DNA of 49,673 bases from a virus (lineage: Duplodnaviria > Heunggongvirae > Uroviricota > Caudoviricetes): positions 1-49,673 of IMG/VR virus record IMGVR_UViG_2778261214_000022; one strand, written 5' to 3'. A program made the translations under genes and the position numbers. The notes beneath the pieces were generated by a model, which made no database searches, was not told the origin of the DNA, and saw nothing but the letters and a program-made list of their open reading frames with translations. This document shows positions 3,431-43,602 of this stretch, piece after piece. How positions within the stretch are numbered: the first letter of the stretch is position 1; each line of letters starts with the position of its first letter.

Positions 3431-6110
3431 TTGTATATTCCTTAGCCCAGCGGGGCAGTGATAACGTCTTAATAGCTGGCCATTCATCGGTATTGAGGCA
3501 GTCAGCCAGGGTTCGCAGATTGCGGTGATATTCCTGCTGGCCTGCCAGTTTTGCTTCTTCGCCCATCATGAAAATTTCAACCGGATAACGTCCGCATTCA
3601 ACTGTTGTGCTGACGGCCAGAAAAACGAAAGTTGGTTGCACACCAAACTGTGCCTCATAACCGTCACTGTAGAATGCATCCTGAACGTGATAGCGGTATT
3701 CGTAATATGCGGTTTTGAATCGCTGAATATCCGCCGTAGTTTTCACGTCCACGATCCAGTGAAATTCAGGGATAATTTTGTCCGGACGGCACCGACACAA
3801 AATTCCCGTTTCCGGATCTTCCCAGTAAATTGATGATTCAGCGTGTCCGGCGCTTTCAACAAGCCATTGCCCCAGCGGCAAAGCCATAACGCTCTGATAC
3901 ATGAGTTCAATTTTCCGGCCTTCTTCCGCAGTGATAACTGTTTTTCCTGTGCTTGCGCATTCCATCAGAAACGTTTTCTCTTCTTCTTTTCCGGCGTTTG
4001 TACGGCGGTTAAATTCAGGTGCTACGATAAAGCGGTTACTGAATTCTTCCGGTTCAAGTACACGGCAGTGGAAAGCGGTTCCTAAATCGAGCGTTTTTGT
4101 CTTTGTAGTGTCCACGGGGGCATTTTTACGCCACAAATACAGTGCCGGAGTATCAGCAATGTCATCGAGCTGAGACTTACTGACACCGGGACCCGCGTGG
4201 TAATTCTCATTCGAAATTCCGTAATAAATACCTAGCTCTATGTCTTCTACGATTACGGGATCTGCGACTTCGCCAGTTTCATCACTGCAATCGCGATGCG
4301 GATCGCTGCCAGCATTCTCATTGTGCGGATGTTCAGCGCCTTCCATTTCCTCCGGATCTTTTTCCTTAGCTTCAACCTGATTCTCTTCACCGAATGTTTC
4401 CTGGTATGTTGCGTCGCCCATCACCGCACCACAGTCAGGGCAGTTATCCCCGCCAGTCTGACCGCAGGCATTGCAGACTTTTTCCACTTCCTGTTGCGCC
4501 ACTGGTTCAGGCTGTTTCGTTTCTGGCTCGTTTTGTAACGCATTTTGGCTGTTTTGTTCCGCTTTCTGGTCGTTTTGTTCCGATTCGGGCTGGTTCTGGT
4601 TCACAGAATCGCGGGTTTCAATCCCCTTAACCCATTTCGGATCATTCGGGTCGCTAATTCCGTCAACGAACTCACCGCGTGATGCAGCAAGAAACTTATC
4701 GGCGTCAGGCTGGTTGATATTGGCAGCCTGCATAATTTTGTTTACTTCGTCAGCGGTAACTTTTACCTGATTAACCGGATCTATCTGTGCCTGAGTATCC
4801 AGCGATTGCGTGTCCTGGCGATGTTCAGTTGTATCCGGCTCCATTGCTTCAGTCGTTGCCTGTTCATCTGCCAGTGCGCCAGACGGTTGCGATTTTTCTT
4901 CATCGTTTTTTTCTTCTTCTGTTTCTTGCCCGGCAGCCAGCTCGCGGTTTATTTCTTCCAGGATATCTTTTTCCGGTGTATGTCGTGCAGCAGCGAGGGT
5001 TTCCTTGCTGGGGTTCTCGTGATCAGTTTCCGTTAAGTGGGCGTTGATATACACCTGAAGGCGTACCCTGTAGAGATAAAGTTCAGGGTGGGCGCTCCGG
5101 ATAAGTGCAAAAATAGCGGCACGGGAATAATCCAGGATACCCGGGATTGCGCGAAGTGCTGCGGACCATTCTTTGAACGGACTTTCTTTCTTCCGGACGA
5201 CTTTTTTTGCGCGACGATAAACGCTGCCCGGGATTTCATAAATATTAAAATCCATCGGAAGGGTGGCCGCTGCAATCTCCACATCCAGCGTATCGAAGGT
5301 GTGTACTAAATTCGGATTGCGATCGGTTTTGTTCCCGCCGCCAGCATTAGCACCGGAAGCCGTGCGGGTGATACGCGAAACACGATTTCCTTTCATCCAC
5401 TCTTTTGTCAGCAGACCGCGATCGGTGTAGTCGGCGTCCAGGTATGCTTCGATAAAAGAGGTTATCAGTCCCAGGTCCGAATTTACGGGGGCGGGGAAAA
5501 CTTTGTCAGTGTCTCGCACCAGTTTGTGGAGATCGCGAATTTCCAGTGGTTCGAGTTGCGCTGCTTTATTTGAGATGGCCAGCGCGGCAACGGCGGGAAG
5601 TTTTTCATCCTGTGCGTTATGTAATGCGCGCAGTTCGTCCCGCGAAACGTGTGTGATCGGTTTTTCGCTGCCGTGCTGTGCCAGCCATCGAACAGGCAGA
5701 ATCTGACCTGAAACCGGCAGGAGCATGTTCTCCTCAATCTCAGCCATGTCTTCGCCGTTGACGTTGGTATTGTCAGTGCTGGCTGGTTTATCCTGAACAG
5801 AGGGTGAGGGCGCGATAAATACCATTGTGATGCCATCTTCCCCGCCTTTTTCGTAACGGTTGCAGAATTCCGTATCAAATACGCCTTCTGGCGGGAGGTC
5901 ATTAACAACGGGCAAATTGACGCGAACAGGTTTTTTGAAGTCATCTTCATCGTATCCAGCATCGTCAATCGCAACAGCACCACGGGAGATGGCAATGGAT
6001 AATTTTTTCGTTTCAGCCCAGTAAAAACCGCCTTTAATACCGAGACGTTTTCTTACTTTGTCATTTTTTGCTTCGTAATACAGTGGGTAAACTTGTTTAT
6101 CGGTGCTCAT
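3423..6110 (-). CDS. recE: Exodeoxyribonuclease VIII RecE
   Basis: 895 aa; C-terminal nuclease domain matches remembered Rac RecE ([48 protein letters not shown]). Confidence 0.95.
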
Positions 6111-17700: not shown

Positions 17701-17776
<76 letters not shown>

Positions 17777-17779
17777 TAT

Positions 17780-17851
<72 letters not shown>

Positions 17852-38247: not shown

Positions 38248-39254
38248 TGCGTTATTACCGACTGGAAATTATTAATCCTAAAACAGGCAAGCCGCCAGTG
38301 GATAGCAATGGAAAACCCATTGGACCTTTTGATACCAGTGAAACACCAGGATGTGGGTTGCATGTTGAATTTGACTTTGAAGTAACCGGCCTGGATGTAG
38401 TCTGTTCGGGCACGATGCTGACGATCTATGGATTACCAATTGACATGCTGAAGCAAAGCGTAAGCTTGCAGGGTTGTCTGGTCCGTATGAAAGCAGGCTT
38501 TGTTCAGGGGTTACCACTGGCAAATAAGGATCAACAGGGGGAGGTAATCTATGGTGAAATTTATCTGGCCTATGCCAACTGGATCGGCACGAACCAGACT
38601 TTAAACCTGGTAATAAATCCAAGCATACGCAAAACCGATGACGGTAAACCTTTTTCAATTGAGGGGCAGGGGGAAGCAGGCGAAAGGGTTGGCGATGTTT
38701 TAGTCCGCGCTTTGCAAAAAGCATATCCCAATAAATTGATTGATTGCACAGTCAGCGACAACCTAGTTTTGCCAGAGCCGTGGACGGGTAAATATACAGA
38801 GATTGGTTCTCTGGCAATGGTCGTAAAAAACGCCTCTATTGCGATGATGCGTAATGAAAGGTATAGCGGAATCGCCATCAGTATTCTTTCCGACAGAATA
38901 CGAATCTACGATAACGCATCGGCAAAGTGGGGTGAGCCAAAAACAATTCATGCCCATGAACTGGTCGGGCAGCCGACATGGGTAGCGCCGTTTACCGTCA
39001 GCTTCAAATGCCCGATGAGGGGCGATATCAGATGTGGTGATGTGGTTAATTTGCCGGAGGGGCTTTATTCGGGCGCCGCGTCGATTGTGATGGCTAATAC
39101 AATGGCTCCTGGCGTTATCTCCAAAAACTCGACCACGTTTACCGGGAAATTTCTTGTGAAATCGGTCAGACACATTGGTTCGTATCTGACAGCCGATGGC
39201 GATGCCTGGGTGACGGTATTCGAGGCATATGCTGAGAACTGGGCGAGGGTGTAA
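38247..39254 (+). CDS. Baseplate hub-like protein
   Basis: 335 aa, TAATG coupling. Confidence 0.5.
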   Translation: MRYYRLEIINPKTGKPPVDSNGKPIGPFDTSETPGCGLHVEFDFEVTGLDVVCSGTMLTIYGLPIDMLKQSVSLQGCLVRMKAGFVQGLPLANKDQQGEVIYGEIYLAYANWIGTNQTLNLVINPSIRKTDDGKPFSIEGQGEAGERVGDVLVRALQKAYPNKLIDCTVSDNLVLPEPWTGKYTEIGSLAMVVKNASIAMMRNERYSGIAISILSDRIRIYDNASAKWGEPKTIHAHELVGQPTWVAPFTVSFKCPMRGDIRCGDVVNLPEGLYSGAASIVMANTMAPGVISKNSTTFTGKFLVKSVRHIGSYLTADGDAWVTVFEAYAENWARV

Positions 39255-39967
39255 TGTCAAACGCTCAAAAAATACCGTTTCTCCGAACGCTGTCGGAGAT
39301 GATGACCAGTTCTGGTAACCAGCAAGCCGAGCTTAAAGGCCGTGAATTGCCCTGCCATGTTGTCGATGTCAGCGGGCAGATAGTGACAGTTCAGTTTGAT
39401 ATGCTCCCCGAGGGGATCAACTTTCCGCAGATAACAATCCCTGTCGCCACATTCCCGTATATCCGTTACCCGATACAGCCGGGCGATCGAGGAGTAACAA
39501 TTGCCGCTGATGTATCCCTGCGCGGTGTGTCCGGGTTGGGAACTGGTATGGCGACGCTCTCTTACTCGATGTCGCTCACTCCCCTGTTTTTCGTGCCACT
39601 GGCAAACAAGGACTGGTCCGACGAAGATCCGCAAAAAATCGTTTTGTACGGTCCGGATGGCGCGATCCTCAAAACAGAGGACGGCAGTAGCTCGGTAACG
39701 GTGGCTCCGGAAGAAATCAGGCAAAAGTCGAAAGCTGTTTACCTTGAGGCCGAAGATATTTTCCTGAACGGGAAAATTCACCTCAACGGACCGATCGTCC
39801 AGGACAAAGCCCAGATGAAGGATACAACCGCTTCGCTGATTGGCCCTCTTAAGGTCGAGAAAGATGCAGTTATCAACGGCGTGAGCGCCAGCGGCCACAG
39901 CCACGATGTGACTGGCGTTCAAAGCGGCGGCAGCACGATCACGTCGAAGCAACCAAATCCGGGTTAA
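39254..39967 (+). CDS. Baseplate spike-like protein
   Basis: 237 aa. Confidence 0.5.
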   Translation: MSNAQKIPFLRTLSEMMTSSGNQQAELKGRELPCHVVDVSGQIVTVQFDMLPEGINFPQITIPVATFPYIRYPIQPGDRGVTIAADVSLRGVSGLGTGMATLSYSMSLTPLFFVPLANKDWSDEDPQKIVLYGPDGAILKTEDGSSSVTVAPEEIRQKSKAVYLEAEDIFLNGKIHLNGPIVQDKAQMKDTTASLIGPLKVEKDAVINGVSASGHSHDVTGVQSGGSTITSKQPNPG

Positions 39968-40006
39968 CCGGTTAATTTCACTTTAAATTCTATCCATAAA
40001 GCGAAA

Positions 40007-40037
40007 GCCCCGACTGGGCAAACAGTCGGGGCTTTTT
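40007..40037 (+). terminator. Strong intrinsic terminator ending baseplate operon
   Basis: gccccgactg-ggcaaa-cagtcggggc followed by TTTTT. Confidence 0.75.
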
Positions 40038-40069
40038 GTTTCTGACCTTGAATAAGGCAAGGAGAAGTC

Positions 40070-40207
40070 GTGTTTGATTTTAGCAAACTGATTCGGGAGA
40101 TTCGAGTTATGGCTGAAAAATTATCCACCTGGAAGTTTTTGCTTATTTGGTTGGTCTTTCTGATTCTTGCGTCTGGTTATTTTGTTGGTCAGATCCGATG
40201 GTGGTGA
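40070..40207 (+). CDS. Small single-pass membrane peptide ending RWW
   Basis: 45 aa from GTG with AAGGAG RBS (MFDFSKLIREIRVMAEKLSTWKFLLIWLVFLILASGYFVGQIRWW). Confidence 0.4.
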   Translation: MFDFSKLIREIRVMAEKLSTWKFLLIWLVFLILASGYFVGQIRWW

Positions 40208-40214
40208 GGGCGCG

Positions 40215-40562
40215 ATGAGAACATGGGGCCGCGTCAACGACGCGAACGGCAACAAAAAATGGGTTGCAGTAGAATCTGACACCAACGGTGATTTCTCCTA
40301 CGGCTGGCTGACGACGCTCATTCAGACGTTAAAGCTGGGGTTGGGGGAGTCGCCGTTTTACGCGAATTACGGCATTCCAGCGCAGCAGTGCATCGTGCAG
40401 CAGATTTACCCGGATTACTATGTGAACATGGTTCAGCAACAGTTTGCCGGGTATTTTGCATCATTGGCAATTTCAAAGGTAGATGGGGCAGAGAACCCCA
40501 CCTATAACATCGATGTTGTGTTTTTTAATGGGACCAGTTATCGGACGCAGGTTCCGGTTTGA
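40215..40562 (+). CDS. Hypothetical protein
   Basis: 115 aa from Met17; possibly a baseplate component or cargo. Confidence 0.55.
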   Translation: MRTWGRVNDANGNKKWVAVESDTNGDFSYGWLTTLIQTLKLGLGESPFYANYGIPAQQCIVQQIYPDYYVNMVQQQFAGYFASLAISKVDGAENPTYNIDVVFFNGTSYRTQVPV

Positions 40563-41101
40563 GGCAAGTTTTCGGGCATCAGTTGGGCCAGTGGCGTATT
40601 AAGAAGTTCATCGCGTGGCATGACAATCCATCCACTTTTGCGTAGTAAGTGAATTGCCCATTCTGTGGTGATAACTGAGCCTGATTTGTGGTGCTCAATG
40701 TGGGTAACCGATCCGTTTCTGACGCGCATGATGATGTCAACATTCAGAGGGGATTGTGTGCTGGTAGTTTCTTCGCGCAGCTTCTTCTCGCACTCGATGA
40801 AGTATCGGCGGATCTGGCGGCCTTTTTCGTTGCGTTCGACCATTGCCAGCTCTTTGGCGGTATCTAGGGTGAGGTGGTAGTCCTTGCGGTTGTGGCCTCC
40901 CCGGCCTTTTGCTTCCCGAATTTGGGAAGCAATCACATAGTCCTGATTTTCTACGAATTCATACTCGCTAAGTCGCTCGGTGATCCAAGTAGCAAAGCGC
41001 TTACCTATTTCGAGAAAGGCGTGCAGATCGCGAGCATTACAGAGAAGGATGGTTTCGTTTGAGACTGTTCCGTTGAAAACGGGGATCAGTTGGGTTGTCA
41101 T
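40538..41101 (-). CDS. AntA-type antirepressor-like protein
   Basis: 187 aa from internal Met with GAGGT RBS; N-terminal antirepressor-like region (ARDLHAFLEIGKRFATWITERLSEYEFVENQDYV ... LTLDTAKELAMVERNEKGRQIRRYF). Confidence 0.7.
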   Translation of the reverse strand: MTTQLIPVFNGTVSNETILLCNARDLHAFLEIGKRFATWITERLSEYEFVENQDYVIASQIREAKGRGGHNRKDYHLTLDTAKELAMVERNEKGRQIRRYFIECEKKLREETTSTQSPLNVDIIMRVRNGSVTHIEHHKSGSVITTEWAIHLLRKSGWIVMPRDELLNTPLAQLMPENLPQTGTCVR

Positions 41102-41434
41102 GATGACCTCTGTTTGTTTTCTTCGAATTACCACTATCTGAGTGGTGCCAGGAGGTTCGAAACGGCACAAACAAAGCCGCGGACTTATTCCCCTTTCGGG
41201 TGTTGTATTCGTCGCCCTCCCGACATTGATCGGGGATGTGACCGCACATGGTGCCATCACTAAATAGTAGGCATAAAAAATCCAACACTGACGGGGTTGG
41301 TTGTGACCGTGTTTGTTGAGGTTTCGACGCCTCATGCACATAATCATACTCAATAGCTCATGGATGTAAAGTCTGATTTGAATAGAGAAAAACCGTTGAT
41401 AAAATCCGCATGAACATTTGATAATGAGGTGATT

Positions 41435-41824
41435 ATGTCGGTAAGTATAAAAATTGCACTCCCTTTATTTACAATTTTATTCGTCTCTTGGTGTGCGATT
41501 GGTACGCCAATTGAAAAATCAGAAAGGCTCATTACTAATCAAGATGTTTCTTTAAGCGAAGAACAACGGCAATTGCTTCAGCATATGAGAAATGAAATGA
41601 TTGTAACAGATCAACTATCAGAATCGTGTCGCTTGGTGAGTGAAGGAAAGGAAAAAGCGGCTTTAACAAAACTCCAAAGTATAGAATGGAGCAATACGGG
41701 GTTAAAAATTTCCAAAAATGGCGTTCATAATGACGGTATTATTGAATACTTTAAGAAAAGACTGCAATTAGGTAGCGAAGGATGTGATGTTTTTACCCAA
41801 GATCTTATTCGTGACGTATATTAA
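41435..41824 (+). CDS. Secreted hypothetical protein
   Basis: 129 aa; hydrophobic signal-like N-terminus; GAGGTGA RBS; AT-rich. Confidence 0.6.
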   Translation: MSVSIKIALPLFTILFVSWCAIGTPIEKSERLITNQDVSLSEEQRQLLQHMRNEMIVTDQLSESCRLVSEGKEKAALTKLQSIEWSNTGLKISKNGVHNDGIIEYFKKRLQLGSEGCDVFTQDLIRDVY

Positions 41825-41828
41825 AAAC

Positions 41829-41857
41829 AGCCCGCGTTCAGCGGGTTGTTTTTTTTT
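41829..41857. terminator. Bidirectional intrinsic terminator between convergent genes
   Basis: cccgc-gttca-gcggg followed by T-run, A-run upstream. Confidence 0.7.
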
Positions 41858-41861
41858 GAGG

Positions 41862-42338
41862 TTACTTGTAATTACCTATTGTGCCACTGATTTCGCATGA
41901 ATACTTACTGAATTCAGTAGGTACAAATTCAACGGAAATAATATCCCCTACTTTTAATGGTCTTGAATCGGACATTCTTATTTCATACTTTAATTCTGGA
42001 TTTTTGAAATCAACCGCAGATAATCTTTGGTTTGATAGTGAATTTACTTTAACTTTTGTTTTATACCAATGCTTGTCTAGATTTGAATCAAAAAATATCT
42101 TTGCGGAATCATCAGTGCTAAACTGATCGCAGATTTCGGAAACTATTTTGTCGCTTTTAACGACCGCTGTCTTATAAGATGATGATTCATTTTTAATATC
42201 TTCATCGGAAGGTGATGAAAAATGGCCAATTAAATAAAGTATAAAGACAATTCCAATTAATGTTCCACAGCCACCATTATTCCTTCCGCTTGATACAGAA
42301 ATACCAGAAAGACCTTTTTTGTTGAAATAGAACCGCAT
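41862..42338 (-). CDS. Membrane-anchored hypothetical protein
   Basis: 158 aa; AAGGAG RBS 5 nt before ATG; N-terminal TM segment; AT-rich codon usage. Confidence 0.65.
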   Translation of the reverse strand: MRFYFNKKGLSGISVSSGRNNGGCGTLIGIVFILYLIGHFSSPSDEDIKNESSSYKTAVVKSDKIVSEICDQFSTDDSAKIFFDSNLDKHWYKTKVKVNSLSNQRLSAVDFKNPELKYEIRMSDSRPLKVGDIISVEFVPTEFSKYSCEISGTIGNYK

Positions 42339-42375
42339 TATATCTCCTTATAACGTATTCAAGTGATAAGTAAAT

Positions 42376-43602
42376 ATGTCAGAAATACCAATTACTATGA
42401 CCAGTGCGGGTGCGCAGCCTACGCCACCCAATGATTTGCTCGCAAATCTTATCACCAGAGTTGCTGAAAAAGTACCTGGATATACAGCCAACCTTCCGGC
42501 GGGACTTATTACAGACCTTGCCAGCACGGCAGTCGGGGCGCTGGCATTAATAGACCAGGCGCGGGTTGATCTTATTAACTCCGTAAGCCCATACGGCGCG
42601 AATATTCCGTTACTGATGCAACTCGGAAACATTTATGGAGCACAGAAGGGATTAAGTACAAATACGGCGGTATACGTGGTGTTTGAGGCGTTGCCGGGGT
42701 TTGGTATCCCTAAAGGATTTGTTGTCGGTGACGGCAACTACCAGTATGCAGTTTCCCGCGATACGGTGGTACCGGAAAGCGGGCAGACTGAGCCAGTCTA
42801 CTGTGTGGCCACAACGTCAGGCTCATGGGCTGTACCGGAAGGAACCGTAACGCAGGTCATTACATCGGTACCCAAAGATCAGCCTGTAAAATGCACGAAC
42901 CTTACCGCAGGTATGCCCGGTCAGGAGGCGCAGACGTGGGCATCATACCGCGCCGAAGTCATGGAGTCCGGCATGTTTGGTGTGCAGGGAACACCGGATT
43001 GCTTTAAAGCGATGCTCAAATCAGTAAGCGGTGTGCGCGAAAACCTGATTTCTTTCCGGCAGTCGTCGCTGGGGAAATGGGTTGCGGTTGTTGGTGGCGG
43101 TGATCCGTATGATGTGGCTTATGCGATTTACAAATCTGTACCGGATATTTCGAAACTGACCAACGATGTTAGCAATCTGTCCGGTGCGGCAGTGGAAAAA
43201 CGCACGGTTTCAATAACCGTTTCGCCGGACGTTTATCAGGTGCCTTTCGTTATCCCGTCATCACAAAATGTTATGGTGCTAATCACCTGGAACACGGTGT
43301 CTGATGATTATGTTGATCCGGCGGGTATTGCTATGGCTGTGCAGCAAAACGTTGCTGATTACATCAATTCAATTGAAGTCGGACACCCGATAAATCTGCT
43401 GCGAATCCAGGATATTTTTACCAGCTCCGTAAAATTGCTGGTTGATGCGACGTTGATCTCAACAATCAGTGTGAGCATTGGTATTAACGGCCATATTGTT
43501 CTTCCGGCAAAAGACACAAGCCTGGTTTATGGCGATACCTATTCCTATTTTTCGACGGTGGCATCACAGGTTCAGGTCAACAAGTATGCAATATCTGACT
43601 GA
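42376..43602 (+). CDS. Baseplate J-like protein
   Basis: 408 aa, followed by I-like and tail fiber genes. Confidence 0.65.
   Translation: MSEIPITMTSAGAQPTPPNDLLANLITRVAEKVPGYTANLPAGLITDLASTAVGALALIDQARVDLINSVSPYGANIPLLMQLGNIYGAQKGLSTNTAVYVVFEALPGFGIPKGFVVGDGNYQYAVSRDTVVPESGQTEPVYCVATTSGSWAVPEGTVTQVITSVPKDQPVKCTNLTAGMPGQEAQTWASYRAEVMESGMFGVQGTPDCFKAMLKSVSGVRENLISFRQSSLGKWVAVVGGGDPYDVAYAIYKSVPDISKLTNDVSNLSGAAVEKRTVSITVSPDVYQVPFVIPSSQNVMVLITWNTVSDDYVDPAGIAMAVQQNVADYINSIEVGHPINLLRIQDIFTSSVKLLVDATLISTISVSIGINGHIVLPAKDTSLVYGDTYSYFSTVASQVQVNKYAISD

Follow-up and report, generated by a model that had tools for sequence, protein, structure and literature searches.

In phage P22 the sieA/immI (mnt-arc-ant) region lies between the ejection gene 16 and the tailspike gene 9, and T5 Llp and T4 Sp block receptor use or cell-wall penetration. 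P2 carries fun(Z), which according to its record annotation blocks T5. P22 SieA is an inner-membrane exclusion protein with three transmembrane (TM) segments (PMC10883804). HK97 gp15 is encoded by a moron in the tail operon and is also an inner-membrane exclusion protein, and Cor of phi80, N15 and HK022 is an outer-membrane lipoprotein that blocks receptor use (PMC3594210). The locus described here occupies positions 39968-42375 of the Caudoviricetes record IMGVR_UViG_2778261214_000022, whose full stretch of 49,673 nucleotides (nt) was analysed and is called the window. It holds an antirepressor gene (ant) and two small genes, p129 and p158, within the baseplate operon of an integrated prophage. 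In kind it is ordinary prophage cargo, consisting of morons at hot spots, and it includes two uncharacterised and very rare families of envelope protein. With confidence a little better than even, we favour a model in which a module with two insertion slots carries envelope morons that serve superinfection exclusion.

Region 39968-42375 is a baseplate module interrupted at two hot spots that flank a core gene of 115 amino acids (aa), not a single islet. Its parts, with the conserved flanks and the fraction of guanine plus cytosine (GC), are as follows.

39254-39967, + strand: baseplate spike-like gene, 237 aa, with a weak GpV Apex motif; left conserved flank
39968-40214: slot 1, from the spike gene to the 115-aa gene, holding a terminator and a 45-aa membrane-peptide gene
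40215-40562, + strand: 115-aa core gene, ATG at 40215, phrog_7986, GC 0.50
40563-42375: slot 2, from the 115-aa gene to the J-like gene (J), holding ant, p129 and p158
40538-41101, - strand: ant, an AntA/AntB-family antirepressor gene, 187 aa, GC 0.50
41435-41824, + strand: p129, 129 aa, AT-rich with GC 0.354, good Shine-Dalgarno sequence
41826-41856: bidirectional terminator common to p129 and p158, a G+C hairpin (41831-41845) preceded by an A-run and followed by a T-run
41862-42338, - strand: p158, 158 aa, AT-rich with GC 0.325, good Shine-Dalgarno sequence
42376-43602, + strand: baseplate J-like gene, 408 aa, PF04865 E 9e-8, phrog_6 E 4e-38; right conserved flank

The hub, spike, 115-aa and J genes were placed by tblastn in 105 related loci drawn from phage records, E. 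coli genomes, one genome per species and IMG/VR. The spike-like gene stands beside the hub gene in all relatives. All four genes are contiguous, with gaps of ~0-60 nt, in a group of cargo-free loci (L031, L035-L042, L102, L107, L109, L110, L112-L114, L116, L118), and they also abut in distant relatives from Arsenophonus, Budvicia and bins labelled Desulfobulbia, Bryobacterales and Verrucomicrobia. Relatives in E. coli, Salmonella, Erwinia, Pantoea and Serratia carry 0.25-3.1 kb of varying cargo at the same two junctions, and Rac-SA53, pPE4, E. coli W, ETEC1734 and JNEC-KY180 have alternative cargo there. Slot 1 is unoccupied in 41 of the 105 loci. Slot 2 is empty in 20, with 0-60 nt between the 115-aa gene and J, and otherwise holds cargo within the size range just given. 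These loci demonstrate both the variability of the slots and the core status of the 115-aa gene.

A preliminary description of this DNA had read the ~2.4 kb as one non-structural, terminator-bracketed islet of moron architecture. All the elements it listed are present: a strong terminator, a micro-membrane peptide ending in RWW, a 115-aa open reading frame (ORF), a reverse-oriented AntA-like antirepressor with a long structured leader, and a convergent 129-aa/158-aa gene pair with a common bidirectional terminator in a stretch more AT-rich than its flanks. The single islet does not survive the comparison, as the 115-aa gene is core and the hot spots are separate. The bracketing by terminators holds at the left edge and in the middle and fails at the right edge, where 37 bp, free of any terminator, separate the start of p158 from the J start codon. 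The moron architecture applies to p129 and p158, which are AT-rich, have a terminator and are absent from most relatives, and does not extend to the 115-aa gene. Comparison with related prophages lacking the insert, which had been proposed as a check, found other genes or nothing at the site.

The 115-aa gene is almost certainly structural. It is assigned to the core and not to the cargo because spike and J abut it in cargo-free relatives, its large family (717 clusters) consists almost entirely of 114-116-aa proteins, its GC is normal and it stands in the place of gpW. The P2 order V-W-J-I-H puts gpW where the 115-aa gene sits, and P2 W is also 348 nt long. Sequence comparison found no link: none of 28 family members had any Pfam match, gp25/P2 gpW (PF04965) included, a PDB search with the family profile stayed empty up to E 10, and alignment by hhalign to P2 gpW and Mu gp46 gave a probability of 0.1. 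As gp25-like proteins are very divergent, the protein may still have a gp25 fold, and by synteny the product may be a gpW-type baseplate wedge. This 'hypothetical' protein needs annotating as the product of a core gene at the baseplate W position, and not as cargo.

The composition of the region sets p129 and p158 apart. GC over 41350-42340 is 0.342 against 0.481 for the whole window, ~3.5 standard deviations below the window mean; only 0.2% of 991-nt segments are as low, and the minimum of the window, 0.339, falls at the same place. The remainder of the region, 39968-41349, has a GC of 0.486, like the flanks, and the neighbouring spike, 115-aa, ant and J genes lie at 0.50-0.53, so that p129 and p158 alone are compositionally foreign. 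Both are foreign, horizontally acquired variable cargo with moron features. In the sense of Juhala and Hendrix a moron is inserted between genes that are adjacent in relatives, which is the case for slot 2 as a whole. Deviant composition, a further mark, is found in p129 and p158 but not in ant or the 115-aa gene. Of the signals a moron would bring with it, the terminator is present, whereas the promoter-like sites are weak and no more than in shuffles. The hot spots of P2 (orf30 upstream of V and fun(Z) after G) similarly hold reverse-oriented non-essential genes at the borders of the V-W-J-I-H-G operon. The insertions in the window differ in lying inside the operon, at the junctions of the V and W positions and of the W position and J, and their cargo is unrelated.

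Position within the baseplate module would also suit two baseplate or tail components, and homology to such components was an outcome that the preliminary description had named as refuting its reading. None was found for either protein. Both are absent from nearly all relatives whose spike, 115-aa and J genes are 90-99% identical, p158 is antisense to the operon, and a signal peptide and a TM anchor are incompatible with cytoplasmic virion assembly. Together with the foreign composition, this leaves a structural role effectively refuted.

The two genes are very rare. Among 5426 complete E. coli genomes ETEC1716 alone has the pair, no phage record has it, and either gene was seen in just 7 of the 105 loci. 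A word-based search retrieved 4 clusters for p158 and 10 for p129, and a HMMER scan of 1.84 billion representatives with p158 gave 6 matches only. The carriers are gut and pathogenic isolates, namely pig enterotoxigenic E. coli (ETEC) and Salmonella. Ratios of nonsynonymous to synonymous substitution (dN/dS) of 0.12-0.21 for p158 and 0.18-0.22 for p129, among orthologues 59-81% identical, indicate that both are real genes under purifying selection.

The contexts in which the genes recur indicate that p129 and p158 are independent single-gene morons that share a terminator by chance in the window. In Salmonella the partner of p158 is a 200-aa multi-TM protein, and in L019 its neighbours are a secreted 146-aa protein and a Bro-N gene. 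Relatives of p129 are the sole occupants of slot 2 in L111, L115 and L124, and the lone homologue in L111 is AT-rich and has its own terminator hairpin equivalent to that of the window. Obligate pairing is ruled out by these arrangements, and with it the earlier suggestion that the convergent pair forms a functional unit. The proposal that the 129-aa protein is secreted and the 158-aa protein membrane-anchored agrees with the predictions for both, and its remark that neither belongs to a recognised family was borne out by searches of Pfam, PHROG, PADLOC, the PDB and fold libraries. In Pfam and PHROG no match had E <0.03, PDB profile searches returned nothing, and none of the five islet proteins matched PADLOC-DB 2.0 even with E values up to 1 allowed; p129 and p158 belong to no described family.

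These results bear on whether the two proteins form an intracellular anti-phage defence or a toxin-antitoxin pair. Slot 2 can carry cargo of that type, with an HSDR_N protein in 21 loci and a YafO pair in 4. For p129 and p158 the idea is poorly compatible with the data and very improbable, given the PADLOC result, the separate inheritance of the two genes and, in both products, signals for export or anchoring together with conserved Cys pairs of the kind common in periplasmic proteins.

The p158 protein has a basic N-terminus, a TM segment at about residues 24-40, an acidic linker and a beta-rich domain of ~115 aa, with Cys70 and Cys148 invariant in the alignments. The model also places a TM helix at 26-39. 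From these features p158 is predicted to be a bitopic inner-membrane protein, N-in/C-out, with the beta-rich domain in the periplasm. A deep hidden Markov model (HMM) search returned three distant relatives and two marginal matches to Ig-like repeat giants (DUF11, Big_9/cadherin; E 2.5e-4 and 1e-3), the latter judged non-specific beta-strand matches. One member of the p158 family matched the tRNA_anti-like OB fold at E 0.21, below the cut-off and a lead only. A secreted 278-aa ORF in slot 2 of L120 and L121 gave a sub-threshold match to the same Pfam family (E 4e-4; 20.3 bits, cut-off 23.5). Distant p158 homologues of 166 and 173 aa, in L023/L024 (6001-7233) and L022 (520-1041), lie antisense inside P2-like tail operons, adjoining gpX and beside U or the tape-measure gene. 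In L023 a 220-aa protein anchored at its N-terminus follows the homologue and shows a faint Wolframin OB-fold match (E 0.004). The distant members P0136 and P0137 have this antisense placement, and the distant member P0135 is in the equivalent slot of a related phage.

The p129 protein has an N-terminal signal peptide, Cys20 and conserved Cys65 and Cys117. It is predicted to be Sec-exported and helical, and is probably disulfide-bonded. Its AlphaFold2 model has a predicted local distance difference test (pLDDT) score of 69.6 with a helical mature part; no fold relatives were found, and no BFVD match had E <0.9. The family as a whole is probably exported, and lipidation appears to vary between members. 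The Salmonella-type relatives P0012 and P0014 have a canonical L-S-G-C lipobox, and the homologues of L111, L115 and L124 have ordinary signal peptides. In the window and all E. coli variants the motif is V-S-W-C, with Trp at -1, and the window p129 does not fit the canonical [LVI][ASTVI][GAS]C. Because Trp precedes the Cys, the window p129 would be soluble or signal-anchored, and its lipidation is doubtful. Promoter-like sites for p129 and ant stand back-to-back at 41343-41405, an arrangement that is suggestive only.

41378-41405, + strand: p129 promoter-like site, TTGAAT-16-TAAAAT with TG (extended -10, 9/12), 29 nt upstream
41370-41343, - strand: ant promoter-like site, TTTACA-16-TATGAT, from a consensus scan

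The most likely role of p129 and p158 would be superinfection exclusion by proteins expressed from the prophage, by analogy with the systems introduced above. HK97 gp15 serves as a precedent. Like p158, it is encoded by a small foreign gene that has been inserted in a tail operon where relatives have two adjacent genes, with deviant GC and its own terminator, and its product is, as predicted for p158, a single-pass inner-membrane protein; gp15 acts from the prophage, as p158 would under the exclusion model. The two share no sequence similarity, and gp15 is YebO-like and much smaller, while p158 has a periplasmic domain of ~115 aa. A second precedent is P22, which combines an antirepressor with an inner-membrane exclusion gene as non-structural cargo among late virion genes. 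There the control is by sar, Arc and Mnt, whereas ant in the window belongs to the AntA family and has an sRNA-Xcc1-type leader; SieA differs by its three TM segments and has no similarity to p158 or p129. Cor, Llp and Sp resemble the present proteins as small exported or lipid-anchored phage products encoded beside tail or receptor-binding genes, but no sequence or fold match was found and the window p129 lacks a canonical lipobox. T4 Imm is a further parallel.

Under the exclusion model, p129 and p158 would be made in the lysogen from weak promoters of their own and would act at the envelope, blocking adsorption or DNA injection by superinfecting phages. Transcription of ant would start at a promoter of its own, run opposite to the late operon and pass through the sRNA-Xcc1-type leader. 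During lytic growth, Q-type antitermination would read through the embedded terminators and the 1.8 kb of cargo, and J and the fibre genes would still be expressed. This transcription through the cargo is proposed because a Q-type antiterminator is present.

A bolder and less probable form of the proposal treats the junction of the 115-aa gene and J as a dedicated hot spot for envelope cargo, p158 as a new class of inner-membrane entry blocker and p129 as a new exported helical class of masking protein. An antirepressor-type gene would accompany envelope-acting cargo at this junction, and p158 recurs antisense in the tail operons of both Rac-SA53-like and P2-like myoviruses. It might carry an OB-like periplasmic domain that engages the incoming tail tip or an SLT-domain tape measure, and p129 might mask a receptor or entry.

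Several observations weigh against an exclusion role. No sequence or fold similarity was found to the known exclusion families (gp15/YebO, SieA, SieB, Imm, Sp, Cor, Llp), with the presence of models for all of them in the libraries being uncertain. The only promoter candidate for p158 is a weak extended -10, TGn-CATATT, which overlaps the J start codon, and no convincing sigma-70 promoter was seen; across the region promoter-like sites are no more frequent than in shuffled sequence. The AlphaFold2 model of p158, built from a 5-sequence alignment, is unusable at pLDDT 42. For p129, the Trp at lipobox -1 speaks against lipidation in the window, and the genes of the family lie on the late-operon strand in all 7 loci and could be mainly late-expressed. 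The signal-peptide and TM calls for cargo families come from our own heuristics and not from a trained predictor, and the locus counts are non-independent, many of the 105 being near-identical E. coli prophages.

The strand of p129 raises the alternative that p129, and perhaps p158, are lytic-cycle accessory proteins, made late and acting in the periplasm of the producing cell, which either mask receptors, as T5 Llp does, and so save progeny from loss on debris, or tune lysis. The sole p129 insert at the junction in L111 and the occurrence of the slot 1 peptide in lysis cassettes elsewhere fit such a role. It is nevertheless distinctly unlikely: in no locus does p158 share the strand of the late operon, p129 comes with a terminator and a promoter-like site of its own, and the phage family can do without either gene, as slot 2 is empty in 20 of the 105 loci and either gene is present in only 7.

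Another alternative, modelled on lambda Bor and Lom and on the way Cor protects against colicin M, is that p129 and p158 alter the envelope for the benefit of the host. As factors of lysogenic conversion or host fitness they might confer serum or stress resistance, adhesion, or protection from colicins or toxins. Envelope location and moron architecture fit this equally well, the carriers are gut and pathogenic isolates, and such moron roles are listed in a review (PMC3594210). We consider conversion unlikely, as no similarity to Bor, Lom or a virulence family was found in Pfam, the genes are too rare for a general fitness factor, and they are tied to tail or baseplate clusters in two unrelated phage lineages, a placement more typical of exclusion genes. 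If the exclusion model is true, p129 and p158 add two unrelated families to the few entry blockers so far characterised. Which phages can superinfect a strain is decided by prophage morons that remodel its envelope, a matter that bears on phage therapy and prophage ecology.

Other slot 2 cargo is also rich in predicted envelope proteins. Among the 21 cargo families that are not regulators, 14 have a predicted signal peptide, lipobox or TM segment, and those of Erwinia, Pantoea and Serratia include clear lipoproteins. Almost none of the slot 2 cargo matches Pfam, and six alternative cargo proteins gave no PADLOC match at E up to 0.01. A DUF1311/LprI motif suspected in the 248-aa and 146-aa proteins was unsupported by Pfam. 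The census thus adds more than a dozen uncharacterised exported proteins, all at a single predictable address, and provides a rule for finding more of them: search between the W-position gene and J. In 21 loci the place of ant and the envelope genes is taken by a protein of 372-391 aa that has an HSDR_N nuclease domain (PF04313, E 5e-14) and may be a single-gene defence candidate. These are L006 (2994-4154, E. coli JNEC-KY180) and 20 IMG/VR loci (e.g. L058, L059), and the protein has no PADLOC match. In 4 loci a YafO-toxin gene and an adjoining 190-aa gene, resembling a toxin-antitoxin pair, lie between the 115-aa gene and ant (L007 7961-8951 in Salmonella, L091, L092 and L096).

The remaining gene of slot 2, ant, clearly belongs to an antirepressor family. 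It matches PF08346 over residues 22-91 (E 1.3e-26, 93.4 bits against a cut-off of 27) and two PHROG anti-repressor families (phrog_14211 at E 2e-74 and another at E 8e-55). AntA is present in 37 of the 105 loci, with Bro-N in L019, KilA-N in L099 and P22_AR_N in L123. The 3' ends of ant and the convergent 115-aa gene overlap by 25 nt (40538-40562) without an intervening terminator, and transcription of the late operon consequently continues through ant in antisense. LexA control, as in Gifsy prophages, was considered and rejected, as no CTGT-N8-ACAG site was found near the gene.

Of 200 shuffled versions of the ~235-nt ant leader, 198 fold less well than the real sequence (z -3.0). The leader contains a motif of the small RNA (sRNA) family sRNA-Xcc1, also found in relatives and in the Shiga toxin (Stx) phage TL-2011c.

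41139-41224, - strand: sRNA-Xcc1 motif (Rfam RF02221) in the 5' leader of ant, 70.9 bits against a gathering score of 53, E 4e-13
L001 5133-5216, L004 3588-3671, L007 7254-7338, L009 5746-5830, L011 7253-7336 and L019 1697-1789: sRNA-Xcc1 sites in relatives
L044 2862-2947 and 3397-3486: two sRNA-Xcc1 sites in Stx phage TL-2011c

The match in the window covers the full 87-position model, with all three consensus helices aligned. The motif precedes ant in five relatives and in TL-2011c, and Bro-N in L019, with scores in relatives of 69-78 bits. In the window and the relatives it lies ~40 nt upstream of the AntA or Bro-N start codon. In the literature the family is an integron-borne, trans-acting sRNA of Xanthomonas (PMC2996969; Chen 2011 as cited), and a study of APSE phages placed sRNA-Xcc1 upstream of an ORF6N gene. 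The ant leader thus fits the full model above the gathering score, but is placed like a cis-acting leader of AntA and Bro-N genes. On this evidence sRNA-Xcc1 may act in cis as the 5' leader of antirepressor genes instead of being a free-standing sRNA.

Slot 1 holds two elements.

40003-40042, + strand: intrinsic terminator marking where slot 1 has its left edge, with a stem of 14 bp (40003-40036; 8 G-C pairs), a 6-nt loop and then a T-run
40070-40207, + strand: 45-aa membrane-peptide gene with a GTG start and one hydrophobic helix, ending ...QIRWW; phrog_6632, E 2e-28

Elsewhere slot 1 contains one to three genes for tiny membrane peptides, to which Salmonella adds a Rha-family regulator. The 45-aa gene is found at 85% nucleotide identity in ~800 of 5426 complete E. 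coli genomes, and in both lambdoid prophage contexts that were inspected it is flanked by the lysozyme and Rz (spanin) genes. It is a mobile micro-cassette that also travels in lambdoid lysis cassettes. The stretch 40024-40207 corresponds to 4001-4183 in both L017 and L018, and the gene is often unannotated.

The window is an integrated prophage whose left end is chromosomal DNA. The prophage is lambdoid-regulated and Rac-SA53-like, its host is E. coli, and its tail appears to be contractile. The baseplate module is a simple one in the style of P2 and Mu, comprising hub, spike, 115-aa gene, J, an I-like gene and fibres. Three features lie well away from it.

463-607: SraC/RyeA-SdsR (RyeB) sRNA pair at the left end, beside the integrase gene
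2169-2347: RalA antitoxin RNA (Rac-type RalR/RalA), early region
17701-17851: two tRNA genes between the Q-like gene and the lysis genes

Other prophage genes encode an integrase, a RecE-like exonuclease, a helix-turn-helix repressor and YdaT. After a Q-like antiterminator (DUF1133/Phage_antitermQ) come the two tRNAs and the genes for a holin and an M15 endolysin. Products of the late region include a weak sheath-like candidate, whose DUF3383 match is sub-threshold, and an SLT-domain tape-measure-like protein, followed by hub, spike, J and fibres. The literature held nothing on the RefSeq accessions, and mentioned 'Rac-SA53' only in passing. The nearest records are Escherichia phage Rac-SA53 (KU052037) and 'Actinobacillus' phage pPE4, which are 93-95% identical over the conserved parts of 39000-43500. 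The latter record, 'Actinobacillus phage vB_Apl-pPE4' (PP818812.1, L002), is 95% identical to the E. coli prophage family of the window over the baseplate region, which suggests that its host assignment deserves checking.

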